64,000 nt of DNA from Squalus acanthias (GCA_030390025.1 CM059432.1:15192001-15256000), one strand, 5' to 3'. Positions 1 to 33,825 are shown, counted from the first letter of the stretch. Translations and numbers: made by a program. The notes: generated from the letters alone by a model not told the origin.

Positions 1-572
1 GATCTTGCATTGCAATTAACAAGCTGCACTCTATATGAATCTTATTTTAGATTCAAGGAAATTGCCAAGTTGAGGGAGAAGTGAGAGCACTGCTGTTGAA
101 TTTCTCTCTAATGACTCAACATATAGAAATTGGAGAGACTGTGGCTACCAAGCAATTGAGATTTATCCCAGCATTGCTCGACGGAGAACATATTTGTAAA
201 TTACAAATGTGCTTCATGTCCTCTTTCCACACAGACTTGTGTCAAGATCCTGACCACTCTGATTGCGGAGCAAGAGTCTTGTTGGACCAGCTGCTATGTT
301 TAAATCAAGACTCATCATGTTAGCTTCCCATCAACCTCATTCCTTCCAAGGACCTCCCTCCCTTTCCTACTACGATCCACAGGCTTGGCTAATCCTAAGC
401 GCAGGACCCTAATATACATTTGGTTATTAGGCCCCCCGCCAATTTTGGGCGCACACGATGAAGGACTAAGAAGAGGCCCGACTGAAAATGGCGCTGGGCG
501 TACTGCCAGTGCAGAATGGGCAGATGAGGCCGGGACCCAATTTTCAGGATCCTAACATTCATATTCTATACA

Positions 573-1023
573 CAGGAAACATAGGAACAGGAGTAGGCCA
601 TTCAGCCCCTCGAGCCTGTTCCGCCATTCCATGAGATCAAGGCTGATCTGTGACCTAACTCCATATACCTGCCTTTGCCCCATATCCCTTAATATACCTT
701 TGGTTAACAAATATCTATCAATCTCAGATTTAAAATTAACAACTGACCTAGCATCAATTGCCGTTCGTGGAAGAGAGTTCCAAATTTCTACCACCCTTTG
801 CATGTAAAAGTGTTTTCTAATTTCACTGCTGAAAGGTCTGGCTCGAATTTTTAGACTATGCCCCCTAGTCCTAGACTCCCCAACCAGCAGAAATAGTTTC
901 TCTCTATCTACCCTATCAGTTCCCCTTAATATCTTGAAAACTTTGATCAAATCACCCCTTAACCTTCTAAATTCCAGGGAATACAACCCTAGTTTGTATA
1001 ATCTCTCCTCGTAATTTAACCCT
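573..1023 (-). mobile_element. CR1 LINE 3' fragment
   Basis: ORF 552-1040 contains the CR1 ORF2 C-terminus (YEERL..LGLYSLEFRRLRGDLI, TRGHSLKI, RVVEIWNSLP) followed by the CR1 3' UTR and short tandem tail. Confidence 0.9.
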
Positions 1024-1074
1024 TTCTCAGCAGGAAACATGCGGGAAAAAGTAAAAAATCCCCCTCCGCATACA

Positions 1075-1440
1075 GCCCAGGAAGGTTGCAGGTTTGATCC
1101 TTGATCTACATTGACTTAACTGTCCTCAGATGGAGCACCTTTTGGGATGCTACAGTTGACCTCACCTTTCCTGGGTTAGGTAGGGGAAAAATTGCCTGTA
1201 TTCCCTTTTCAGACCTGATCCAATGACCCCCTACCAGAAGTACACAGGTGGACGGACATCAGGCAAAGATGGGTTTGGACTTGGCTATGATGCCCCCTGC
1301 AGCCAAACAGCCTGCCAACACGCACTGTTAAAACATCCCATTTAATAATTGGCACTTGGTTGAGATCTACGGTGTCGATTGAACTATATCCCCACAACGA
1401 GTCAATGTTTTCAGGAGAGGAGGGGGGACAATTGGCAAGA
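1075..1440 (+). mobile_element. Old degenerate SINE-like repeat (unclassified); related minus-strand copies near 9290-9580 and 18060-18540
   Basis: B-box-like ggtttgatcc at the 5' end; segments similar in reverse complement to the other two regions. Heavily diverged and compared by eye only. Confidence 0.4.
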
Positions 1441-2403
1441 AAGAAAAATGCCTTGAAGTAAAACAAAGAGTTTAATCAGTGTGCTTTCTGATTAGCTACC
1501 AACAATTTCCATCCTAATGACCGGCGGTCATACTGTGATTGCTAATTACCATGGAAATCACAGCTACCCAATCAGAACATGTGCTAATACACAAATTTAA
1601 GATGTCAGAAAAGAGCATCATTAGAAAAATGCTTTAAAAGTTGGTTGCCAATTGCTGTGGGATTGATTTTTAAACTCACTCAAATCACATTCTCAGTCTG
1701 AAAAACTGTCTCCTAAACTTTAAGCAGAAGACATGAATGGAGATTAGAAAGGAACACCTGATGCAGTTCAAAACCTTGCTGCCTTTGTGCAATTATGGGC
1801 ATCTTTTATAATTTTTCCATGAGTAGTAAATCTCTCCTTAATATCATAGAACATTCAATACCCAAGACAATAGAGATCCCATCGACAATACACACACACA
1901 CACTCCCTCCCCCCCCAGCCCCCAGAAGAACTGAGCCCCAATACATGCACACCCGTCAGGAGAACTGAACTTCCACGCATGCGTTTGCACACACAGAAAA
2001 ACCTTGAGAAGAAAGCCACCATGCACACGCACACAGACACACACAAAGAGGAGAATTCAGCTACTACGCAGATATATCTGGTGAATTCAATCACCGTCAC
2101 ACACATGCACCCCCTCCCCCCTCAGGAGAATTGAGCCCTCACACATGCACAATCCTCAAGAGAGTTGAAACTGCTCCAATATACACATATAGACAAATCC
2201 AGCCCCCAAGACAGACAGAAAGCAGTTGAATGTGATTTTCTATAGCGACCTTTGAAAGATCTGCGAGCAGAATTTTCATTCATTGAATGTAAATGTGTGA
2301 GTATTCTAGCCTGTATTCCCAACCACCCCCTTGTAAATATTCCAGAAATGGGCGATTCTTATAAAATACAGGGCAGAGATTGCTCAATGCCAAACAGTTT
2401 TAA

Positions 2404-2722
2404 AAAAAGACTTGCATTTATATAGCTCCTTTCACGTCCTCAGGACATCCCAAAGCACTTTACAACCAAGTACTTTTGAAGTGTAGTCACTGTTGTAATG
2501 CAAGAAAGGCAGAAGCCAATTTGTCCACAGCAAGCTCCCACAAACAGCCATGTGATAATGACCAGATAATCTGTTTCAGTGATGTTGATTGAGGGATAAA
2601 TATTGGTCAGGACACCGGGGAGAACTCCCCTGCTCTTCTTCGAAATAGTGGCATGGGATCTTTTACATCCACCTGAGAGAGCAGACGGGGCCTCGGTTTA
2701 ACGTCTCATCCGAAAGACGGCA
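2404..2722 (-). mobile_element. DeuSINE (SacSINE1-like), 5'-truncated
   Basis: Reverse complement of the 3' two-thirds of the SINE at 60824-61270. Confidence 0.85.
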
Positions 2723-2759
2723 TGTGAGTGAGGACAGTTCCACGTAGCTGGGCAACAGA

Positions 2760-3205
2760 GAATGGTGTGTTTAACTGTGTCAAAGGCTGTAGAGAGGTTG
2801 GGGTGGACGAGGAAGTATAATGCACTACAGTCACATTCGCAGAAAATAGTTTGTGACTTCGATTAGGGCCATTTCGGTGCTTTGGAGGAGTGAAAACGGA
2901 TGGGAGGGACTCGGACTTGGAGTTGCGGAAAACATGAACGTGGATCTGGGAGGCAACAACACGTTCAAGGACTTCAGAGAGGAAAGGAAGGTAGGAGATG
3001 GAGGCGGTAGTTAATGAGAACTGACAGGTCAAGGGTTGTGTTTTATGTGGAGTGGGGAGGGTTGGCGACGGTGATTTTTGAAGGGAGGGATACAATGCCG
3101 GGGAAAGGGAACCATTTACAATGTCAGTTAGTATGGGGGTCAGGAATGGAAGCTAGATGGTCAAGAGTTTTGTCGGAATGGGGCTGAGGGAGCAGGAAGA
3201 GAGCA
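2760..3205 (-). mobile_element. L2 LINE internal fragment, degenerate
   Basis: Similar to 29600-30000 of the longer L2 copy; ISYLPFLSEVLERVVASQI matches the ISNLPFLSKIL RT-proximal motif. Confidence 0.75.
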
Positions 3206-14252: not shown

Positions 14253-15630
14253 AGAACATAAGAACATAAGAAATAACAGCAGGAGTAGGCCATACGGCCC
14301 CTCGAGCCTGCTCCACCATTCAATAAGATCATGACTGATCATCGACCTCAACTCCACTTTCCTGCCCAATCTCCATATCCCTTGATTCCCCATGAGTCCA
14401 AATATCTATCTATCTCAGCCTCGAATATACTCAAAGACTCAGCATTCACAGCCCTCTGGGGTAGAGAATTCCAAGATTCACAACCCTCTGAGTGAAGAAA
14501 TTCCTCCTCATCTCCGTCTTAAATGGCCTACCCCTTATCCTGAGACTATGCCCCCTAGTTCTAGACACTCCAGCCAGGGGAAACAACCTCTCAGCATCTA
14601 CCCTGTCAATCCCCTTCAGAATCTTGTATGTTTCAATGAGATCACCTCTCATTCTTCTAAACTCCAGAGAGTATAGGCCCATTCTACACCATCTCTCATC
14701 ATAGGACAGCCCTCTCATCCCAGGAATTAATCTAGTGAACCTTTGTTGCACCGCCTCCAAGGCAAGTATATCCTTCCTTAGATAAGGAGACCAAAACTGT
14801 GCACAGTACTCCAGGTGTGGTCTCACCAAGGCCCTGGATAATTGTAGCAAGACTTCCTTACTCTTATACTCCAACCCCCTTGCAATAAAGGCCAACATGC
14901 CATTTGCCTTCCTTATTGCTTGCTGTACCTGCATGCTAGCTTTCTGTGTTTCTTGCACGAGGACACCCAAATCTCTCTGAACACCAACATTTGTAAGTTT
15001 CTCACCATTTAAAAAATATTCTGTTTTTCTATTCTTCCTACCAAAGTGAATAACCTCACATTTCCCTACATTATACTCCATCTGCTACCTTACTGCCCAC
15101 TCACTTAGTCTATCTATATCCCTTTGCAGAATCTTTGTGTTCTCCTCACAGTTTACTGTCCCACCTAGCTTTGTATCATCAGCAAACTTGGATACATTAC
15201 ACTCGGTCCCTTTATCTAGGTCATTTATAGATTGTAAATAGCTGAGGCCCCAACACTGATCCTTGCGGCACCCCACTAGTTACAGCCTGCCAACCTGAAA
15301 AAGATCAGTTTATCCCTACTCTCTGTTTTCTGCCTGTTAACCAATCCTCTATCCATGCTACTATATTACCCCCAACCCCATGAGCCCTAATCTTGTGTAA
15401 TAATCTTTTATGTGGCACCTTATCGAATGCCTTTTGGAAATCCAAATATACTACATCCACTGGTTCCCCTTTATCTACCCTGCTAGTTACATCCTCAAAA
15501 AACTCCAATAAATTTGTCAAACACGATTTCCCTTTCATAAAACCATGTTGACTCTGCCTAATCATGTTATGATTTTCTAAGTGACTTTGATACCAATTCC
15601 TTAATGATGGATTCCAGCATTTTCCCGATG
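14253..15630 (-). mobile_element. CR1 LINE, 5'-truncated, RT domain to 3' tail
   Basis: [44 protein letters not shown]; tail agaacataagaacataag. Confidence 0.95.
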
Positions 15631-15635
15631 AGGAA

Positions 15636-15773
15636 AGCTAGATAAGCACATGAGGGAGAAAGGAATAGAGAAGTATACTGATAGGGTTACATGAAGAGAT
15701 GTGGGAGGAGACTCGTGTGGAGCATAAACACCGGCATAGACTAGTTGGGCCAAATGGCCTGTTTCTGTGCTGC
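15636..15773 (+). mobile_element. CR1 3' UTR fragment
   Basis: Reverse complement of the tail type seen at 46420-46560 and 58085-58220. Confidence 0.7.
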
Positions 15774-16100: not shown

Positions 16101-17379
16101 AACAACAACAACTTGTATTTATATAGCGCCTTTAACGTAGTAAAATGTCCCAAGGTGCTTCACAGGAGTGTTAAAATTTTTAAAATGTGACACCGAGTCA
16201 CCAGGGCAGGTAACCAAAAGCTTGGTCAAAGAGGTAGGTTTTAAGGAGCGTCTTAAAGGAGCAAAGAGAGGTAGCAAGGCGGAGAGGTTTAGGCAGGGCC
16301 TAGGCAACCGAAGGCATGGCCACCAAAGGTTGAGCGATTATAATCAGGGATGCTCAAGAGGGCAGAATTAGAGGAGCGCAGATATCTCGGGGGGGGGTTG
16401 TGGGGTGGGGGGGGGTGGTGGTTGGAGGAGATTACACAGATAGGGAGGGGAGAGGCCATGGAGGGATTTGAAAACGAGGATGAGAATTTTGAAATTGAGG
16501 CGATGCTTAACCAGGAGCCAATGTAAGTCAGCGAGCACAGGGGTGATGGGAGAACGGGACTTGGTGTGAGTTAGGACACAGGCAGCCGAGTTTTGGACGA
16601 CCAAGTTTACGTAGGGTGGAATGTGGGAGGCCAGCCAGGAGTACGTTGGAATAGTCAAGTCTAGAGGTAACAAAGGCATTGATAAGGGTTTCAGCAGCGG
16701 ATGAGCTGAGGCAAGGGTGGAGACGGGCGATGTTACGGAGGTGGAAATTGGCGGTCTTAGTTATGCTGCGGATATGTGGTCGGAAGTTCATCTCAGGGTC
16801 AAATATGACACCAAGGTTGCGAACAGTGTGGTTCAGCCTCAGACAGATGTTAGGGAGAGGGATGGAGTCAGTGGCTAGGGAACGGAGTTTGTGGCGGGGA
16901 CCGAAAACAATGGCTTCGGTCTTCCCAATATTTAATTGGAAATAATTCCGCTCATCCAGACAAGCAGTCTGACAATTTAGAGACCGTGGAGGGGTCTAGA
17001 GAAGTGGTGGTGAGGTAGAGCTTGGTTTTGTCAGCGTACATGTGGAAACTGACGCTGTATTTTCGGATGATGTCGCCAAGGGGCAGCTTGTAGATGAGAA
17101 ATAGGAGGGGGGCCAAGGATGACGGTGGAGATGCGTTGGAGGAGGATAGTGTGGTCAACTGTATCAAAGGCTGCAGACAAGTCAAGAAGGACGGGGAGGG
17201 ATAGTTTACCTTTGTCACAGTCACAAAGGATGTCATTTGTGACTTTGATGAGAGCCGTCTCGGTTCTGTGGCAGGGGCGGAAACCTGATTGGACGGATTC
17301 AAAGATGGAGTTGCGGGAAAGATGGACACGGATTTGCGAGGCGACAACACGTTTAAGGACTTTGGAGAGGAAAGGGATG
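16101..17379 (-). mobile_element. L2 LINE 3' fragment with internal deletions
   Basis: FHMYAD.T.LY, LINAFVTSRLDYSN.LLAGLP, PITPVLADLHWL; tail ggcgctatataaatacaagttgttgttgtt. Confidence 0.92.
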
Positions 17380-18189
17380 TTAAATGGTTATTCTTTCCCC
17401 AGATTGACCATTTCCATCAGGTGCACAGCGCAAACTGCAGTCGCCTGTTGAAGGACTTCTGTTATTCCACAATTTCCCAAATTGCAGCAAATTGAAAGCA
17501 ACAAAAACAAGCCAGCAGCACCTACTTGCTCATCAGCAGATGGAACCAGAGTTACCTTGCTTCATGATGTGGCGCCTCTAAAGGTTGTTCATGAAAGAAA
17601 CTCTCTGCTCTGTGCTTCCCTTCCCACTGTAAATGGGACTCTAATCAACTCACACAGCAGGCACACAAACACTCAACTGCTTCTTGGAATGGACAGAAAA
17701 AAAATTACAACTGCATATGTTAGCTGAAAGTGTGTTAATAGGCCATAACCCAGTTCTCGCACAATTTAAAAAATCATCCAGAATCTTTGATTGCGTTCTT
17801 GCCAGATTGCACATTTTTCAAGCTGTTATTCAATGCTTAAGAAAGGTTGGTTAAAAGAACAGTTACATCTGCAAATGTAGCATTGCCATGTTTCATGTTA
17901 AGCAGCCAATGCACAGAGAATGACAGACAGCACAGAATGGGCTATACGTATTGGAGGGGAGGGCTTGGGTGATGCCAAACAATGAGAGGATGGAGTTCAG
18001 GAAGAAGATGTAGGTCATCGGAATTCTGAGAGGTCTTTAAACTTCTCAACATATCCAAGGCACTATGTTCTTTCCAACGTTCTCCCTATCTGAAGGTACT
18101 CTGTCATGCTCGGCTCCGTTCCACAGAGGCCATCAGTTCTTCAGTACCTCACGCAGATGGCCATTCTTTGTGTGCAAGCTTTTTCACTG

Positions 18190-18340: not shown

Positions 18341-18678
18341 GGTCGGCAGGCTGTTCGACTGCAGAGAAGTAGAATAGCTCAGCCGAGCCTGATCATGGCA
18401 CATAAATAGTTTCCATCAGGGGTAGTGGACAGCAAACAGGAGCGAGAACGCTGGTTGATTTTTTTTTTCTCCCCTTCTCACCCAGGTAAGTCAAGTTTAG
18501 CACTCTTACTTTGAGATCTGTGACCTCAGAACAGACCAGGTTATATACTCAGTATATAAAATGCAATTTATCAAACTTCTCTACAATTTAATGATGGATC
18601 GGAAAAAAGATTGCTCTATAGTTGTCAACATATTGAGAAATTCCAGTAAAATAGAAATGAATATTGAATTTACAGTAC

Positions 18679-18950
18679 CTGATACAAATTTGGCCAGAAA
18701 GTACTTATGGCCAACTCTGCTCTGTTCCAGCTTCTTGTCATCATTCCAGACACATTCCAGATTGGGTTCCCAAGAGGTCCATCATTGACCTTCACATAAA
18801 CATTTAGTAACCCAGGGTTGGCCCCTTCCTTGCCGGATAAAAAGTAATGGAAATCGATGCAGTGTGTGTCATTCTCTTTCAGTTTCGACAGCAGAAGATG
18901 TGCTTTTTGTCCTGCCTGACGTCCGGAGGTGTTAACCATCATAAAGGATC
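18679..18950 (-). CDS. PTPRM: Internal coding exon (272 bp, phase 1 to phase 0) of a type IIB receptor protein tyrosine phosphatase, MAM domain; best match PTPRM (RPTP-mu)
   Basis: Translates [91 protein letters not shown]. Canonical acceptor (ccacctcttgtacgcag|G) and donor (CAG|gtactg) on the minus strand. From recalled sequences, [20 protein letters not shown] and [18 protein letters not shown] fit PTPRM better than PTPRK/PTPRT/PTPRU. Confidence 0.9.
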
Positions 18951-19892
18951 CTGCGTACAAGAGGTGGAATTTGAAGCTCGTTAGAGACTGGAGTCGATAA
19001 ATCAAATCGGCATCAAGAGCAAATAAATTGATACAAAATTTGTCAGAAGCCAAAGATAAATAATCACCCCACATGGAAAAGCAACAGATTACTTTGTGCG
19101 TGCAAGTCCACGAAAGTTGTTTACAGTGATGCACTGACACTGGATCAATGTGCTCAGCCCAATACCAACAGCACCTTTTCTCCCTTCTCTCCTGAAGGCA
19201 TTAACTCTTGCTGGGCTGTAATTCGATGGGTACGGGCAGCCCAGACAGTCACCAGATTGGATTTTTAGTCGCAAATGAAATTCATATATAATCAGCACAT
19301 ATCGCTGATTCTTATTAAGGACAAGCTCAATTTAATAAATAAAAAAACTTTCCCAGAATGCGCTTATCAGGAATTCACTACCCTCAATTACTAATTGAGC
19401 ATGCAAATGGAGATAAATTGTTTCTAGCCCGAGTGTTCTTAAGTGGAGTGTTAGGAATACGAACAGGAAAGCTCTTCTTAAAGAATCAATTTTATGCTCA
19501 GAACTCCATTTTGTAGTTAAAAAACAGTTTGCAAAATCTGTTGAAATAAACAATATCCGTAGAATATCAACAAATGAACTCAAATCTCCAAGTCTGTACC
19601 GATTGACGTCATGCAAGATAGCCTTGGGTATTTCTAATCTTCTAATAAATATATCTGTCTGTATGGCGACCATATGTTTACCCTTCCTGTACTTGTAATG
19701 ACAGCTTTTGCTATGAGACCCACTTTCTACAATGCTGAGTTGATGCAAGTTAGCTGTAAAACCAAGAGTGAAGGTCATGGAGGAGGTGCTGTAATGGCTT
19801 TTTAGTGGAAGATAAAAAGCAAGACAATTGTAACCTAGTTAGAGAAGAAACAGAAGGCTAATCACCCGGCAACTGTAATGTGAGGTCTCCCG

Positions 19893-22099: not shown

Positions 22100-24900
22100 C
22101 TCCCCATATCCCTTGATCCCCTTAGCCTTAAGAAATATATCTAACTCCTTCTTGAATATATTTAATGAATTGGCCTCAACTGCCTTCTGTGGTAGAGAAT
22201 TCCACAGGTTCACCACTCTCTGGGTGAAGAGATTCCTCCTCATCTCAGTCCTAAATGGCTTACCCCTTATACTTAGACTGTGACCACTGGTTCAAGACTC
22301 CCCCGCCATCGGGAACAGCCTTCCTGCATCTAGTCTGTCTAGTCCTTTCAGAATTTTATAAGTTTCAATGAGATCCCCTCTCATTCTTCTAAACTCTAGC
22401 GAATATAAGCCTAATCGACCCAATCTCTCTTCATACGTCATTCCTGCCATCCCAGGTATCAATCTGGTGAATCTTCGCTGCACTCCCTCCATGGCAAGAA
22501 CATCCTTCCTCAGATAAGGCGACCAAAACTGCACACAATACTAAAGGTTTGGTCTCACCAAGGCCCTGTACAACTGCAGCAAGACATCCTTGCTCCTGTA
22601 TTCGAATCCTCTCGCTATGAAGGCCAACATACCATTTGCCTTCTTAACCGCCTGCTGCACCTGCATGCTTACCTTCAGCGACTGGTGCACAAGGACACCC
22701 AGGTCTTGTTGCACTTCCCCTTTTCCCAATCTATTGCCGTTCTGATAATAATCTGTCTTCCTGTTTTTGCCACCAAAGTGGATAACCTCGCATTTATCCA
22801 CATTATACTGCATCTGCCATGCATTTGCCCAATCACCCAACCTGTCCAAATCATACTGGAGTTTCTCTGCATCCTCCTCACAGCACACACGCCCACCCAG
22901 CTTTGTGTCGTCTGCAAACTTGGAGATATTACATCTAGTTCCCTCGTCTAGATCATTAATATATATTGTGAATAACTGGGGTCCTAGCACCGATCCCTGC
23001 GGTACCCCACTAGTCACTGCCTGCCACTCGGAAAAAGACCCGTTTATTCCAACTCTTTGCTTCCTGTCTGCCAACCAGTTTTCTATCCAATTCAGTACCT
23101 TACCCCCAATCCTATGTGCTTTAACTTTGCACGCTAATCTCTTATGCGGGACCTTATCGAAAGCCTTCTGAAAGTCCAAGGACACCACATCCACTGGTTC
23201 TCCCTTATCTATTCTACCAGTTACATCCTCAAAACATTCCAGTAGATTAGTCAAGCATGATTTACCTTTTGTAAATCCATGTTGACTTTGTCCGATCCTG
23301 TCACTGTTTTCCAAGTGCTCTGCTATTACATCTTTTATAATGGCCTCTAGCATTTTCCCCACTACCGATGTCAGGCTTACCGGTCTATAATTCCCCGTTT
23401 TCTCTCTCCAACCTTTTTTATATCGTGGGGTTACATTAGCTACCCTCCAATCCATGGGAACCGTTCCAGAGTCTATAGAATTTTGGAAGATGACCAGCAA
23501 TGCATCTACTATTTCTAGGGCCACTTCCTTAAGTACCCTAGGATGTAGATTATCAGGCCCTGGGGATTTATCGGCCTTCAATCCCGTCAATTTCCCGAAC
23601 ACCATTTCCCTACAAATACTGATTTCATTCAGTTCCTCCATCTCATTAGACCCTATGTTCCCCGACATCTCTGGGAGTTTATTTGTGTCCTCCTTTGTGA
23701 AGACAGAACCAAAGTATGTATTTAATTGGTCTGCATTTCTTTGTTCCCCATTATAAATTCCCCTGATTCTGACTGCAAGGGACCTACGCTTGACTTCACC
23801 AATCTTTTTCTCTTCACATATCTATGGAAGCTTTTACAGTCAGTTTTTATGTTCCCTGCAAGCTTACTCTCATACTCTATTTTCCCCCTCTTAATTAATC
23901 CCTTTGTCCTCCTTTGCTGAATCTTAAACTGCTCCCAATCCTCAGGTTTGCTGCTTTTTCTGGCCAATTTATATGTCCTCTCCTTGGATCTTATGCTATC
24001 CCTAATTTCCCTTGTTAGCCATGGTTGAGTCACCTTTTTTGTTTTATTTTTATGCCAAACAGGGATGAACAAATTCTGTAATTCATCCAGGCGATCTTTA
24101 AATGTTTGCCATTGTCTATCCACCGTCAACCCTTTAAGTAACATTCCCAATCCATCCTAGCCAACTCGCGCCTCATACCATCATAGTTTCCTTTATTTAA
24201 ATTCAGTACCCTAGTCTCTGAGTCAACTATTACTTCACTCTCCATCTTAATGAAGAATTCTATCATATTATGATTGCTCCTCCCCAAGGGGCCTCGCACA
24301 ACAAGATTGCTAATTAATCCTTTCTCATTACATAATACCCAGTCTAAGATGGCCTGATCTCTAGTTGGTTCCTCGACATATTGGTCAATGAAACCATCCC
24401 GTATGCACTCTAGGAATTCCTCTTCCACAGTATTGTTACTAATTTGGTTAGCCCAATCTATATGTAGATTAAAGTCACCCATGATAACTGCTGTGCCCTT
24501 ATTGCACGCATCTCTAATTTCCCGTTTAATGCCATCCCCAACCTCAGCATTACTGTTTGGGGGTCTGTATACAACTCTCACTAACGTTTTCTGCCCCTTG
24601 GTATTTCTCAGCTCTACCCATACAGATTCCACATCATCAGAGCTAATATCCTTCCTTACTATTGTGTTAATCTCCTCTTTAACCAGCAATGCTACCCCAC
24701 CTCCTTTTCCTTTTTGCCTGTCCTTCCTGAATATTGAATACCCCTGGATGTTGAATTCCCAGCCTTGGTCACCCTGGAGCCATGTCTCCGTAATCCCAAT
24801 TATATCATATCCATTTACATCTATTTGCGCAGCTAATTCATCCACCTTATTACGAATGCTCCTCGCATTAAGACACAAAGCCTTCAGGCTTGTTTTTTTA
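22100..24900 (-). pseudogene. CR1 ORF2p: APE endonuclease plus reverse transcriptase, split by frameshifts
   Basis: [71 protein letters not shown]. Confidence 0.93.
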
Positions 24901-25063
24901 ACACTCTTAGACCTATTAGAATTATTGTTTACTATGGCCATGTTTGATTTACACCCTTGATTTCTCTGACTTCCACTTTTGCTTTTCTCCTTCCTGTCTT
25001 TTGCTTCTATCCTTGCTTCCCTTTCCTCTGTCTCCCTGCACAGGTTCCCAACCCCCTGCCATT

Positions 25064-25998
25064 TTAGTTTAAACCCTCCCCAACAGCATGAACAAACACT
25101 CCCCCTACGACATCGGTCCCAGTCCTGCCCAGGTGCAAACCGTCCAGTTTGTACTGGTCCCACCTCCCCCAGAACCGGTTCCAATGTCCCAGGAAATTGA
25201 ATCCCTCCCCCTCGCACCATTCTTCTAGCCATGTATTCATCTGAAATATCCTTCTATTTCTGCTCTGACTAGTACGTGGCACTGGTAGCAATCCTGAGAT
25301 TACTACCTTTGCGGTCCTATTTTTTAATTTACCTCCTAACTCCCTATATTCAGCTTTTAGGACCTCATCCCGTTTTTTACCTATATCGTTGGTACCTATA
25401 TGCACCACGACAACTGGCTGTTCACCCTCCCCCTCCAGAATGCCCTGCAGCCGCTCCGAGACATCCTTGACCCTTGCACCAGGGAGGCAACATACCATCC
25501 TGGAGTCTCGTTTGCGGCCACAGATACGCCTATCTTTCCCCTTACAATAGAACCCCCTATCACTATAGCTCTCTCGCTCTTTTTCCTCCCGTCCTGTGCA
25601 GCAGAACCACCCATGGTGCCAGGAAGTTGGTTGCTGCTGCCTTCCCCCGATAAGCCATCCTCCTCAACAGTATCCAAAGCGGTATATCTGTTTGAGAGGG
25701 GGATGGCCACAGGGGACCCCTGCACTACCTGCCTGCGCCTACTACTCTGCCTGGTGGTCACCCATTCCCTTCCTGCCTGTGCAGCCTTTACCTGCGGTGT
25801 GACCAACTCATTAAACGTGATATCCACGACGTCCTCAGCATCGCGAATGCTCCAGTATGTATCCATTCGCAGCTCCAGCCCCGCAATGCGGTCTGCCAGT
25901 AGCTGCAGCTGGATACACTTCCCGCACACATGGTCGTCAGGGACACAGGAAGTGTCCCTGATTTCCCACATAGTGCAGGAGGAGCATTCACTTTGCAT
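25064..25998 (-). pseudogene. CR1 ORF1p: C4 zinc finger, leucine zipper, SGNH/GDSL esterase domain; one frameshift
   Basis: CSSCTMWE...CGKCIQLQLL..RIAGLELR; IVIGGSIVRG (block I, GDS changed to GGS); VHIGTND; DGLHL. Confidence 0.88.
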
Positions 25999-28402: not shown

Positions 28403-30537
28403 AACAACAACAACTTGTATTTATATAGCGCCTTTAACGTAGTAAAATGTCCCAAGGTGCTTCACAGGAGTATTAAAAGACAAAAAAATTGACACCGATC
28501 CACATAAGGGGAAATTAGAGCAGGTGACCAAAAGCTTGGTCAAAGAGGTAGGTTTTAAAGAGCGTCTTAAAGGAGGAATGAGAGGTGGAGAGGTTTAGGG
28601 AGGGAATTCCAGAGCTTAGGGCCAAGGCAACAGAAGGCACGGCCACCAATGGTTGAGCGATTATAATCAGGGATGCTCAAGAGGGCAGAATTAGAGAAGT
28701 GCAGATATCTCGTGGCGGGGGGCGGAGGGGGGTTTGTGGGGCTGGGAGGAGATTACAGAGATAGGGAGGGGCGAGGCCATGGAGGGATTTGAAAACAAGG
28801 ATGAGAAATTTGAAATCGAGGCGTTATTTAACCGGGAGCCAGTGTAGGTCAGCGAGCACAGGGGTGATGGGTGAACGGGACTTGGTGTAAGTTAGGACAC
28901 GGGCAGCCGAGTTTTGGATGACCTCAAATTTACGTATGGTAGAATGTGGGAGGCCAGCCAGGAGTGCGTTGGAATAGTCAAGTCTAGAGGTAACAAAGGC
29001 ATGGATGAGGGTTTCAGCAGCAGATGAGCTGAGGCAGGGGCGGAGATGGGCGATGTTACAGAGGTGGAAGCCGCGGATATGTGATTGGAAGCTCATTTCA
29101 GGATCAAATATGACACCAAAGTTGCGAACAGTGTGGTTCAGCCTCAGACAGATGTTAGGGAGAGGGATGGAGTCAGTGGCTAGAGAACGTGGTTTGTGGC
29201 AGGGATCGAAAACAATGGTATCGGTCTTCCCAAGATTTATTTGGAGAAAATTTCTGCTCATCCAGAACTGGATGTCGGATAAGCAGTCTGACAATTTAGA
29301 GACCGTGGAGGGGTCGAGAGAAGTGGTAGTGAGGTAGAGCTGGGTGTCATCAGCGTACATGTGGAAACTGATGCTGTGTTTTCGGATGATGTCGCCAAGG
29401 GGCAGCATGTAGATGAGAAATGGGAGGGGGCCAAGGATAGATCCTTGGGGGACACCAGAGGTAACGATGCGGGAGTGGGAAGAGAAGCCGTTGCAGGTGA
29501 TTCTCTGGCTACGATTAGATAGATAAGAATGGAACCAGGCGAGTGCAGTCCCACCCAGCTGGATGACGGTGGAGAGGCGTTGAAGGATGGGAGTGGTCAA
29601 CAGTGTCAAAGGCTGCAGACAGGTCGAGAAGGATGAGGAGGGATAGTTTACCTTTGTCACAGTCACAAAGGAGCTCTTTCGGTACTGTGGCAGGGGCAGA
29701 AACCTGATTGGAGGGATTCAAACATGGAGTTGCGGGAAAGATGGGCACGGATTTGGGAGATGACAACACGTTGAAGGATTTTGGAGAGGAAAGGGAGGTT
29801 GGAGATGGGGCGGTAGTTTGCAAGGACGGTCAAGGGTTGGTTTTTTGAGGAGAGTGGTGATGACGGCAGATTTGAGGGAGAGGGGGACAGTACCTGAGGA
29901 GAGAGAACCGTTAACAATATCAGCCAACATGGAAGCCTCAAGAAGGAAGTTGGGTGGTCAGCAGTTTGGTGGGATTAGGGTTGAGGGAGCAGGACGTGGG
30001 TCTCATGGACAAGACAAGCGCGGAGAAGTCATGAGGGAGATCGGAGAGAAACTGGAGAAAGATGTGGATTTCAGGGCTAGGGCAGGGCAGAACCTTAGAG
30101 AAAGTTTGGCCCGGTGGGGAAGGGAAGTGGCAGAGGCAGCTGAACGATGGTCTCAATCTTAGAGACAAAGAAGTCCATGAGCTCCTCACATTTGTTATCG
30201 GAGGTGAGGGTGGAGGAGACAGGGGAGAGGGGTTTAAGAAGACGGTTAGCAGTAGAGAATAGGAGCCGGGGTTTATCTTTGCATTCCAGAATGATTCTGG
30301 AATAGTGAGCAATTTTGGCAGACGATGGCAGGGCCCTGATAATGCTTTATGTGGTCCAGCCAGATCTGGAGGTGAATGGCTAAACCAGTTGTCCGCCATA
30401 TCCGTTCAAGTCTGCGTCTCTTGGACTTAAGTGAGCGAAGATGAGGGCCGTACCAGGGGGAACAGCCAGGGTGAGAGAGAGTAATTGTTTTAATAGGGAC
30501 TAGGACATCAAAGGTGGTGGTGAGGATGTGGTTGAAC
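28403..30537 (-). mobile_element. L2 LINE, 5'-truncated (about 2.1 kb of ORF2)
   Basis: NYRPISNLPFLSKIL, LLDLSAAFDTVDH, GVPQGSILGP, HMYADDTQLY, SRLDYSN, LHWLPV; (GTT)n tail. Confidence 0.95.
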
Positions 30538-31533: not shown

Positions 31534-32421
31534 GGAGGAAAAATTCAGTTGGTTGCGCCTCCCGTTAGCGCCTTAAGAGTGCGCTAATGGGCGCAAAGCA
31601 ACTAGTGCCCGGGCGCAGCGATGTTTGCGCCGCTCGCGAAATTAACTAGAAATTTTGCGGCGGCGCTAAACACTACCGCCACGATCTCCTGCGCCGGCAG
31701 ATCGTGACGTCAGTCGAGTGTGCAATGCCCCAGTAGCGCCCCGGAGCGTATATTGAGTGGCGCCCCCTGCCTTACCGCCTGCCGCTAGCAACGACAGGTT
31801 GAGGGGAGCGTTTTGCAGTCAGGAAGGGACTGGGGGAGTGCTATTTAAAGGCAACCGCTTCCTGACTTTTTTTGTTGGTGACATTTTTGAACCACGCATT
31901 CTGAGAGAGAGAGAGACTTCTGGAGAGATTCAACGCTGTGTCAAGGAGTTTTGGGTACTGAGCAGCACTTTGCAGGTTCATTTTGATTTTCCCTTCCTTG
32001 TATCGATTTAGAAGAGACTGTGGGGGCTGCACTCTGAGCTCTTTCCCTGGTACTCTCCATTGATCTTTCCAGCAGATTTGATGTACAGGTCTCTCCAGGC
32101 CAAGATTCAAGGCTGTAATGAGCAGGATGTGGATGGAAAGCAAGATCAAACCTCCCCTTTAAGAACTGGCCGGCGCCATTGTGTCTGTGTTCCATTGCTG
32201 ACTGACATCACATGAGCTTCGCCAGCGCTCTGAGTTAGCGCCTCGCTCCTCGGCCTTTGCGCCTTAAGACAGATGTGTAGCGCCTGATTTAGCGCTCCAA
32301 TCACCTCCAGGGGCGATAAAAGTCAAGTTTGCAGTCGGAGGCGATAATTAGCGCCAGGCGCTAATCTTTGTACCCGGCCGATAATTGCGCCCGAAATGGG
32401 GCGATACTGAATTTTTCCCCC
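31534..32421. mobile_element. Harbinger-type non-autonomous transposon, copy 1 (888 bp), inserted in a CR1 tail
   Basis: TIRs GGAGGAAAAATTCAGT / ACTGAATTTTTCCCCC; TSD TAT (31531-31533, 32422-32424); highly similar to 52943-53835. Confidence 0.9.
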
Positions 32422-32801
32422 TATGACTCTAAGTAGGGTCTCACTCCCTGCTGGACCACTTCACCAGTAGCAATTATGGGGAACATCCCTGTGTGTCCCA
32501 AAGTGGCTCTATTGCACACAGAAATGGTTCAGATCCTGCAAACTGATGCTGCAAGTTGAAAATGAGCATTTCCAGCCTATAGTGTGGTTTCCGCGGGTCA
32601 GGCAGCTTCAGAGCAGCTCTAAGGCTGGTTTAAAATCCTGCAACCTTCCCCCACCCAATCCTATTTGCAATCGAACCACTTTGGGATGCACCCCATAATT
32701 AACATCACTGGAGACTTTCCTCCCCCTTTGAGAGAAAGAACAAAGACAGAGAGGAGAAGTCGCACAACACCAGGTTATAGTCCAACAGTTTTATTTAAAA
32801 T

Positions 32802-32835
32802 TACGAGCTTTCGGAGCTCCGCTCCTTCTTCAGGT
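32802..32835 (-). ncRNA. Minimal hammerhead ribozyme motif (family B) on the minus strand, intact core, 2-bp stem I
   Basis: Reverse complement reads AC-CTGAAGA-A-GGAGC/GGA/GCTCC-GAAA-GCTC^GTA. Confidence 0.7.
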
Positions 32836-32839
32836 CCTG

Positions 32840-32874
32840 TACCTGACGAAGGAGCAGCGCTCCGAAAGCTCGTA
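32840..32874 (+). ncRNA. Minimal hammerhead ribozyme motif (family B), intact core
   Basis: TAC-CTGACGA-A-GGAGC/AGC/GCTCC-GAAA-GCTC^GTA; palindromic AGCT stem III; CUC cleavage triplet. Confidence 0.78.
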
Positions 32875-33029
32875 ATTTAAAATAAAACTGTTGGACTATA
32901 ACCTGGTGTTATGCGACTTCTCATTTTTGTCCACCCCAGTCCAACACAAGCATCTCTGCATCAAAGACAGAGAGGGAAGAGAAAGGATACTTTAAAAAAA
33001 AAATACACTTCAGTCTGATCAGGAAACCT

Positions 33030-33825
33030 CATACATGCCTTGGAGGAGGTGCAAAGAAGGTTCACTACATTGATCGCTGGGATGAGAGGGTTGTCCTATG
33101 AGGAGAGATTGAGCCTATACTCTCCGGAGTTTAGAAGAATGAGAGGTGGACAACACGGTGGCATAGTGGTTAGCACTGTTACCTCACAGCGCTAGGGACC
33201 CGGGTTCGAATCCGGCCTCGGGTGACTGTCTGTGTGGAGTTTGCACATTCTCCCCGTGTCTGCGTGGGTTTCCTCCGGGTGCTCCGGTTTCCTCCCACAG
33301 TCCAAAGATGTGTGGGTTAGGTTGATTTGGCTATGATAAATTGACCCTTAGTGTTAGGGGGGATTAAATACGTGGGGATATGGGGATAGGGGGGGATATG
33401 TGTCGGTGCAGGCTCGATGGGCCGAAATGGCCTCTATCTGCACTGTGGGGATTCTGTGATTCTGTGATCTCATTAAAACATATAAAATTCTGAGGGGGAT
33501 TAACAGGGTAGATGCTGTGAGGTTGTTTCCCTGGCTGGAGAGTCTAGAACTAGGGGACACAGTCTCAGGATAAGGGGTCGGCCATTTAAGACTGAGATGA
33601 GGAGGAATTTCTTTACTCAGAGGGTTGTGAATCTTTGGAATTCTCTACCCCAGAGGGCTGTGGATGCTCAGTCGTTGAGTATATTCAAGGCTTAGATAGA
33701 TAGACTTTTGGACTCTAGGGGAATCAAGGGATATGGAGATCGGGCAGGAAAGTGGAGTTGAGGTCGATGATCAGCCATGATCTCACTGAATGGCGGAGCT
33801 CCTAATTCTTATGTTCTTATGTTCC
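33030..33825 (+). mobile_element. CR1 3' fragment interrupted by a V-SINE
   Basis: CR1 sequence gaatgagaggtg|atctcatt is split by 33149-33466; tail ttcttatgttcttatgttc. Confidence 0.9.
33149..33466 (+). mobile_element. V-SINE (HE1-like): tRNA head, V domain, CR1-type tail
   Basis: A box ggtggcatagtggttagc, B box ggttcgaatcc; V-domain tgtgtggagtttgcacattctccccgtgtctgcgtgggtttcctccggg; tail gattctgtgattctgtg. Confidence 0.88.

Follow-up and report, generated by a model that had tools for sequence, protein, structure and literature searches.

Introduction

Penelope-like elements (PLEs) that bear an endonuclease encode a reverse transcriptase (RT) followed by a GIY-YIG domain, with two cysteines between GIY and YIG plus two histidines; those of the Neptune/Nematis type also have a linker with a CX2-5CxxC motif upstream of GIY-YIG (Craig et al. 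2021, PMC8557442). The sections of the same paper on insertions describe an inverted, 5'-truncated copy and a tail of 30-40 bp on one side only. In this work we have analysed an insertion in a 64-kb stretch of the 3.71-Gb assembly of Squalus acanthias (CM059432.1:15192001-15256000, the whole of which we call the window), which a preliminary description made from the sequence had taken for a mini-element with a hammerhead ribozyme on each strand. Our results point very strongly to one PLE insertion, flanked by a target-site duplication (TSD) and composed of two 5'-truncated copies of the hammerhead-bearing end placed head to head, probably made in a single event. It is a known and ordinary kind of PLE insertion, and not a new mini-element.

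Metazoan PLEs carry minimal hammerheads in their pseudo-long terminal repeats (pLTRs), where dual motifs on opposite strands lie 100-700 bp apart, and the published motifs cleave weakly in vitro as dimers (Cervera and de la Peña 2014, PMC4209133, in the parts that treat these elements). For PAc, a Poseidon element of Anolis carolinensis, the hammerhead cleaves only with the element's protein; both DNA strands are cleaved and extended in vitro, and two internal RT start sites bracket the tail (Frangieh et al. 2024, PMC11167929).

Results

Architecture of the insertion

The 14-bp sequence CAAAGACAGAGAGG is present twice in the window, at 32741..32754 and at 32962..32975, and encloses an insert of 207 bp (32755-32961), as seen in the sequence and by a repeat finder. 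The repeat finder also returned an inverted repeat at 32745-32835 and 32841-32931 (91 nt, 91% complementary, with a 5-nt gap between the arms), and a script comparison showed that 32754-32835 and 32841-32922 are reverse complements over 82 nt with five mismatches. By alignment, the left arm (32755..32835, minus strand) is an inverted, 5'-truncated copy of a PLE end that lacks the tail, and the right arm (32836..32922, plus strand) is a direct, 5'-truncated copy of the same end. The direct copy continues, on this side only, into a 39-nt tail (32923..32961, plus strand), identified by comparison with full-length copies, in which the tail stops at the start codon of the open reading frame (ORF; ...GCATCATG). 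The two copies meet at a head-to-head junction of 9 nt, GTCCTGTAC, which in the pair comparison separates the two CUGA boxes (32834..32842). The last 2-3 nt (GAG) of the left TSD copy can equally be assigned to the end of the arm, as a microhomology, and the CA that opens the 14-bp repeat may derive from the element's own ...GCATCATG end, so that the true duplication is 12-14 bp long. A script search of the 64-kb window found no further arm copies, and neither the sequence nor the repeat finder gave a tandem unit at the locus.

Each arm reads, on its own strand, CUGANGA, an extra A, a 5-bp helix II (GGAGC/GCUCC), a 3-nt loop and GAA-AGCU-C, followed by GUAAUUU and then AAUAAA. The candidate minimal hammerhead motif of the inverted arm (32802..32837, minus strand) is GGAC / CUGAAGA-A-GGAGC-GGA-GCUCC-GAA-AGCU-C / GUA, as judged from the sequence, the family alignment and the features given in the corresponding sections of PMC4209133; that of the direct arm (32839..32874, plus strand), from sequence and alignment, is GUAC / CUGACGA-A-GGAGC-AGC-GCUCC-GAA-AGCU-C / GUA. 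Three of the five mismatches between the arms fall on N7 (A in the minus arm, C in the plus arm) and loop II (GGA and AGC, respectively); the remaining two are at helix-I position 1.8 (T and A) and a private G/A difference at 32765/32911. The inverted arm thus has the haplotype N7=A, loop II=GGA, 1.8=T and the direct arm N7=C, loop II=AGC, 1.8=A. The AATAAA of the direct arm (32881..32886, plus strand) has its mirror copy on the minus strand in the other arm, and sits in an AAATAAA block that is almost invariant across 80 distinct variants of the family. The direct repeats, the insert length, the arms with their mismatches and the three differences at free hammerhead positions, the CUGANGA...GAAA cores and the AATAAA had all been noted in the preliminary description, and our comparisons confirmed every one of them.

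Downstream of the AATAAA a stem-loop, UGUUGGACU / AGUCCAACA, is weakly predicted by folding at 32889..32946 (plus strand; z -2.2). Tail-less arms would stop within its apical loop, and the tail takes in its 3' half. An equivalent stem-loop, also weakly predicted (z -1.6), is present at another locus of the family (L028:1554-1611).

The parent element

A genome search with the direct arm and its tail (126 nt, 32836-32961) gave 959 first-look candidates, and all 40 of the places that were scored matched over the full length at 95-100% identity; the inverted arm gave 1039 first-look candidates, with a match at 40 of 40 scored places. The family copies end alike, in ...CTCCGCAT/CATG, beyond which the flanks are unrelated, and most of them adjoin an inverted second arm. 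Some arms extend 5' into a common sequence that leads to the C-terminus of an ORF (...FMSRYRT). A 463-aa piece of this ORF is a reverse transcriptase (Pfam RVT_1, 3.1e-8), and the ORF itself matches RVT_1 at 2.3e-8. Using the RT-endonuclease half as query we obtained 66,030 first-look candidates; all 92 that were scored are 99-100% identical, with frames of up to 947 aa.

Three full-length copies (L041, L042 and L043) consist of arm and tail, an ATG directly after, a 919-codon frame, about 250 nt of 3' untranslated region (3'UTR) and the arm repeated. The order of the full-length element is therefore 3'UTR, minimal hammerhead, AAUAAA, stem-loop and tail, ATG, ORF, 3'UTR and hammerhead, and the pLTRs of these copies come from partial tandems, as in published endonuclease-bearing PLEs. 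Within the 919-codon stop-free frame lies an ORF of 892 aa with RT, CX4CxxC and GIY-CC-YIG, in which we recognised YIDD, CHGNLCKTC, VVYLIRCSKGCSRAWYIG and, downstream, two histidines. The CHGNLCKTC linker, of the CX2-5CxxC type, is found in both subfamilies described below. The Pfam GIY-YIG model gave no match to the ORF at E<=1, and no relative was found in the PDB. By its motifs the parent is an endonuclease-bearing PLE with a linker of the Neptune/Nematis type, a likeness in the shared CX4CxxC that is one of motif alone, without phylogeny. No published name for the family was found in the literature searched. The earlier view of the insert as a PLE derivative was thus correct, in that the arm is the hammerhead-bearing end, at the pLTR/ORF junction, of an element with RT and GIY-YIG, and the autonomous PLE that had been sought does exist, with intact 919-codon frames elsewhere in the genome.

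Two subfamilies could be distinguished. That of the window has H17=C and GUAC 5' of CUGA, and its coding copies, in a 12-locus sample, are 96-98% alike and broken. The younger one has H17=U, the loop GACA and CUUAC 5' of CUGA; its exact 49-nt motif occurs 1222 times in the genome (control, 0). Many intact 919-codon frames were seen in the younger subfamily, among them L041 (1432-4107), L042, L043 and L045, and from its sequences this subfamily looks currently or very recently active. In the older-type lineage with N7=A, loop GGA and 1.8=T (L060-L088) many arms are 100% identical, although every one of the 12 coding copies examined from the older subfamily has a broken ORF. Perhaps the younger subfamily mobilises this lineage in trans; alternatively, its source copies may lie outside our sample.

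One tail per pair

To see the insertion signature of the family we collected 40 de-duplicated head-to-head pairs (loci L001-L088). At least 10 nt of identical outer flank, that is a TSD of 10-16 nt and mostly of 12-13 nt, was present in 35 of the 40, against 1 of 486 control pairings, which indicates that each pair is the product of one event. The outer ends are fixed at two points. The tail-bearing arm ends at reference index 147-151, at the ATG of the ORF, and the tail-less arm at index 109-117, in ...CTTCTCATTTTT, where the window's inverted arm also has its outer end; a single arm ends at index 81. Exactly one arm bears the tail in 39 of the 40 pairs, the exception (L026) having two tails. 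The same rule held for 17 of 17 pairs in a sample not chosen on the tail and for all seven complete pairs of the younger subfamily (L089-L118), an outcome to which an independent choice at each end gives a probability of at most 0.5^24. These observations argue that the two ends of the insertion are made in a coupled, asymmetric way and not independently.

Head-to-head pairs with a single tail, enclosed by a TSD of 10-16 nt, are how the family is usually found. Of the younger subfamily, 48 of the first 100 of the 1222 young-motif copies stand in 24 head-to-head pairs, with 9-4238 nt between the copies, and the same 100 copies include two tail-to-tail pairs and two tandem pairs. In contrast with the outer ends, the inner ends vary by locus. 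Among the 23 pairs with no more than 60 nt between the CUGA boxes there are 17 distinct junction strings, and in other pairs the arms run hundreds of nucleotides inward. Most frequent among the junctions are GTAC, in 5 pairs, and GTACAGGTAC (3 pairs) / GTACCTGTAC, and the window has GTCCTGTAC. Both GTAC and GTACAGGTAC are based on the GUAC palindromes that the window's subfamily has ahead of CUGA. Junctions of 39 nt or less were found in 22 of 35 pairs of the subfamily with GUAC, versus 3 of 13 younger pairs with CUUAC (Fisher p 0.022). The evidence leans towards joining assisted by the palindromes over a fold-back point that is simply the start of the RNA. Truncation of both copies just 5' of the hammerhead makes the element in the window the extreme case.

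A preference for a target site, a CR1-like LINE (long interspersed nuclear element), was also considered. Four of 34 pairs share flank homology with another pair, at differing positions, and no clear single site emerged among them. Two loci show further arrangements. At L107:1452-1610 a tail-only inverted fragment abuts a tail-less direct arm, which suggests that the tail became separated and was inverted onto the opposite side. At L031 (the region of L016), positions 372-3043, the two arms of an older hairpin, inverted and direct, enclose a 1.75-kb younger copy, which is a nested insertion into a relative's hairpin.

Differing hammerhead variants in many insertions

Among the matches listed, 29 other places share the window's inverted arm at 100% identity over 81-84 nt, and because of this identity A/GGA/T and C/AGC/A are to be read as differences between lineages and not as decay. 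In 34 TSD-flanked pairs, differences between the two arms number 13/31 at N7, 9/33 and 10/33 at the two loop II sites and 4/34 at 1.8, against 64 of 2955 comparisons (2.2%) over the remaining sites taken together. Where all four sites could be read (31 pairs), 19 pairs are discordant and 12 concordant, and the 2.2% rate elsewhere would make 8.4% of pairs discordant (p 2e-13). The two loop II changes are linked (Fisher p 0.0013), GGA being present and GGC absent, and the four sites form 12 haplotypes among 62 arms. One combination, inverted A/GGA with direct C/AGC, recurs in L001, L007, L010 and L012. Within L041 and within L043, the 5' and 3' pLTRs are alike in variant.

The arms of the window were likely copied from two different RNA variants, as their sequences suggest. 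That the arms descend from two functional variants had been proposed before; the 29 identical places and the concentration of pair differences at N7, loop II and 1.8 support this, and the genome-wide search with the arm indicates that A/GGA/T is a separate lineage. In the PLE literature on two-template or both-strand copying, supplements aside, we found no statement that the arms differ in variant.

Fold and hammerhead motifs

Both strands of the insert fold into a hairpin, with energies of -148.3 and -156.4 kcal/mol (z -21.7 and -22.8). On neither strand did any of 200 shuffles fold as stably, so that the inverted repeat is not due to chance. Transcribed from either strand, the element is predicted to form a hairpin of about 90 bp that sequesters both hammerhead motifs, and the long double-stranded RNA (dsRNA) hairpin considered in the preliminary description is indeed the structure that folding predicts. 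Since the hairpin would hide both motifs, no self-cleavage is expected at the locus in a PTPRM pre-mRNA.

Cleavage of the motifs is predicted at 32871/32872 on the plus strand and 32805/32804 on the minus strand, which agrees with the positions given before (32872 and 32804) under our own numbering. Both arms have the CUGANGA and GAAA boxes and an H17 that is not G (C in the window's subfamily, U in the younger one). Across the 80 distinct variants of the family the unpaired A between A9 and 10.1 is invariant, the pair 10.1-11.1 is GC in 78 and GU in 2, helix II is paired in 99.5% of cells with changes that are one-sided only, and G35 and C36 are invariant, with T37 at 90% or more. Positions 15.2-16.2 are palindromic (AGCU), without a real helix III, and may be a dimer interface. 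In helix I the pair 2.3-1.3 is UA in 67 variants, CG in 5 and UG in 3, the five CG rows all coming from one older lineage, and the pair 2.4-1.4 forms in merely 14 of the 80. The pairing statistics, whose counts are inflated by related sequences among the 80 variants, give modest support to the hammerhead. Helix I has 3 bp in the plus arm and 2 bp in the minus arm (GGAC instead of GUAC), because only 2 nt (AC) of the minus arm's own sequence precede its CUGA.

No Rfam 15 hammerhead model matched at E<=10 in the window interval 32000-33700 or in loci L028 and L041. The models expect closed helices, which are absent from the motif, and the check by Infernal that had been suggested did not recognise it. 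In single arms of the window the hammerhead is not the minimum-energy structure (z about 0), and in the arm of the young subfamily the three-way fold is (z -1.56). By sequence the motif fits the published minimal hammerhead of PLEs in both boxes, the unpaired base, G10.1-C11.1, the palindrome and the location in the pLTR; self-cleavage of the arms is predicted only. Of the intact ribozyme core once claimed for each strand, then, the core boxes stand, and the claim of an intact ribozyme is not supported, given the lack of an Rfam match, a helix I of 3 and 2 bp and arms that do not fold as a hammerhead.

Genomic context

The host gene is PTPRM-like and lies on the minus strand, so that the minus arm is sense to it, as had been stated. 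A MAM-domain exon is present at 18673..18957 (minus strand; Pfam MAM 1.2e-18) and matches residues 44-138 of human RPTP mu (PDB 2c9a) at E 8.6e-49, against 7.5e-35 for PTPRK. The insertion lies 13.8 kb upstream of this exon in the gene's own direction, most likely in an intron. A search of 60 open segments on the minus strand, from 19.3 to 32.8 kb, brought up no further piece of MAM; this interval holds LINE ORFs, and a short exon in it could be missed. Short signature motifs of the phosphatase gave no convincing match in six frames. Contigs from four RNA runs (three organisms) cover only the repeat parts 32747-32962 and from 33044 on, with no unique flanks.

Several other repeats surround the insertion. 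A LINE at 22544-25663 (minus strand) has Exo_endo_phos (6.7e-13), RVT_1 (1.5e-34) and an ORF resembling a GDSL lipase (7.4e-13). The same strand has further fragments of RT, at 15308-15637, 17034-17387 and 28827-29974. The 3' coding remnant of a CR1-like LINE (...VQRRFT...EERL...; 33040-33150) starts 65 nt downstream of the insertion and is followed by a tRNA-related repeat (33157-33200) resembling a short interspersed nuclear element (SINE). Both the remnant and the SINE-like repeat are very abundant in the contigs of the four RNA runs.

Discussion

Here we have analysed a 207-bp insertion in the dogfish genome through the family to which it belongs. We propose that a staggered double cut, with about 12-14 bp between the nicks, would supply two primers, and that both cut DNA strands would prime reverse transcription in a single event. 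One complementary DNA (cDNA) would initiate where the tail ends, at the ATG of the ORF (the distal end point), and the other 39 nt upstream, in the loop of the predicted stem-loop. Both would proceed 5'-ward across the hammerhead, and they would be joined immediately 5' of CUGA, in the GUAC palindromes or close to them. At the window, one cDNA would have been made on an RNA of the A/GGA/T variant and the other on one of the C/AGC/A variant. With neither an ORF nor a promoter of its own, the product is predicted from its sequence to be inert as a mobile element. Variable junctions and variant pairs, together with fixed outer ends, suggest that every hairpin arises afresh when it inserts and gives rise to no further copies.

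This locus resembles in many respects the units of endonuclease-bearing PLEs, as far as these are set out in the relevant sections of PMC8557442: an inverted, 5'-truncated copy stands head to head with a direct one, a tail is present at one end (39 nt here), the TSD is variable, the pLTR carries a hammerhead and 5' truncation is strong. It differs in that both copies are reduced to about 85-125 nt, with nothing but the hammerhead end left. PAc also has its hammerhead at the pLTR-ORF junction and two adjacent start sites whose interval is the tail, both strands are cut in vitro (which at our locus is an inference), and RT initiation takes place at an AC-rich stem-loop, which the weakly predicted stem-loop of the window resembles (PMC11167929). 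The PAc start sites, however, lie 111-118 nt inside the ORF, whereas the end points here are at about -39 and 0 relative to the ATG, and PAc shows no strand bias in the use of its start sites, whereas one tail is found in 39 of 40 genomic pairs.

As regards the hammerhead itself, the motifs treated in PMC4209133 have in common with ours CUGANGA and GAAA, the unpaired nucleotide between A9 and 10.1, G10.1-C11.1, a palindromic 15.2-16.2 (AGCU) without a real helix III, a short helix I, the location in the pLTR, dual motifs close together on opposite strands and highly variable free positions. In the Schistosoma families discussed there helix II has 7-8 bp, against 5 bp here, and helix I is described as 4-5 bp, against 3 bp (plus) and 2 bp (minus).

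The joining of two cDNAs within one duplication also has a counterpart outside the PLEs. In LINE-1 twin priming both ends of a staggered break prime cDNA, which leaves an inverted 5' segment and a direct 3' segment within one TSD. The proposed priming from both ends of the break and the inverted and direct segments within a single TSD are alike in the two cases. The L1 segments, in contrast, are consecutive parts of one RNA, whereas the arms described here cover the same part and are often unlike in variant.

Several points weigh against a single event with two primers and two templates. The first sample of pairs (L001-L058) was chosen by similarity to the tail-bearing arm, and all our samples, of at most 30 loci per search, are small beside thousands of copies. 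The endonuclease was called from motifs seen by eye, with the Pfam GIY-YIG model not matching. Priming on both strands is taken from an Anolis element studied in vitro that belongs to another PLE clade, and that work, in which the strands did not differ in the use of start sites, does not on its own account for the strict one-tail rule. The long head-to-head arms of L046 are 99.5% alike and about 97% like L041, so that arms can also come from one lineage. Finally, the four variable sites are nearly the sole markers in the 90 nt common to the arms, and two RNAs, one RNA with unlike pLTRs and site-specific hypermutation cannot be told apart here.

It is accordingly possible, though we think it unlikely, that the arms were identical at insertion, both stemming from one RNA or a snap-back, and that their differences arose by hypermutation (RNA modification or editing read by the RT, or RT error at unpaired hammerhead positions), or else that one RNA carried two unlike pLTRs. 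The differences are confined to four unpaired positions with as many as 12 haplotypes among the 62 arms, L046 shows that nearly identical long arms occur, and PMC4209133 remarks that PLE hammerheads vary to an extreme degree, which is difficult to account for in terms of DNA. On the other side, the loop changes are linked, A/GGA/T is heritable (as the 29 identical places among the listed matches attest), 12 of 31 pairs are wholly concordant, and the same variant is found in the 5' and 3' pLTR of L041 and of L043. We see far less chance that the hairpin is itself a non-autonomous, ribozyme-bearing unit, transcribed and copied as such by PLE enzymes in the manner of a retrozyme or SINE. The hairpins are very numerous in the genome, four loci have the same variant pair, and non-autonomous, PLE-dependent hammerhead repeats exist in animals (bioRxiv 10.64898/2026.07.22.740005, in the parts that describe them). 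The junctions of those four loci, however, measure 9, 10, 67 and 10 nt (L001, L007, L010 and L012) and are unlike in sequence, and copying of the unit from its tail end predicts a variable 5' truncation of the far arm, which is fixed in 39 of 40 pairs. The unit moreover has neither a promoter nor a tandem arrangement, and a perfect stem of about 90 bp would be a poor template for an RT. The reading as a non-autonomous mini-element is thus not supported, for junctions and variant combinations change from locus to locus and the outer ends fall at two fixed points. The metazoan non-LTR (long terminal repeat) retrozymes of Li, Clavereau and Pollet (2026), as characterised in the sections concerned, are likewise non-coding hammerhead repeats related to PLE ends; they differ in their arrangement as tandem direct repeats and in a presumed mobility through circular RNA, and here we have an inverted pair flanked by a TSD.

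Two further explanations start from the inverted repeat as such. One is a miniature inverted-repeat transposable element of a DNA transposon, with terminal inverted repeats of about 90 bp, for which a long inverted repeat inside a direct repeat would speak; the structure of the family refutes it, with an unpaired 39-nt tail at the right end and a TSD of 10-16 nt, and the arms, whose inner ends vary from 4 to several hundred nucleotides, continue into an RT element, through its 3'UTR and into its ORF. We give this reading practically no chance. The other, hardly more credible, is a host-selected hairpin RNA gene in the PTPRM intron, a microRNA precursor or a regulatory dsRNA. The fold is very stable and Rfam returns sub-threshold hairpin matches to mir-1597 (46 bits) and mir-553 (28.5 bits), but the gathering thresholds are 93 and 82 bits, respectively, and the hairpin sequence is one of thousands of near-identical repeat copies. 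A single PLE insertion remains by far the most probable origin of the element.

What could such an insertion do, and what can be learned from it? The local effect is expected to be small, a dead stump that brings a potential dsRNA hairpin of about 90 bp, with the sense-strand AATAAA concealed within it, into a probable PTPRM intron. The wider value of these stumps is as natural records of single Penelope integrations, present in thousands in this genome beside a subfamily with intact ORFs. What our analysis adds is a quantitative one-tail rule and the variant mismatch between arms. We also entertain, as a rather doubtful idea, that every head-to-head PLE insertion is made from two RNAs held in a two-headed complex, one per cut strand, and paired via the palindromic helix III. 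If this were true, the chief job of the PLE hammerhead would be to pair templates instead of cutting, and the N7 and loop II mismatches in stump arms would be a fossil record of RNA pairing. The integration mechanism of PLEs is poorly known, and one tail per pair, a TSD round the whole pair and a variant mismatch in about 60% of pairs constrain it. Our results suggest that two templates are often used in PLE integration, and both this and the coupled, asymmetric making of the two ends are testable in the existing in vitro system.

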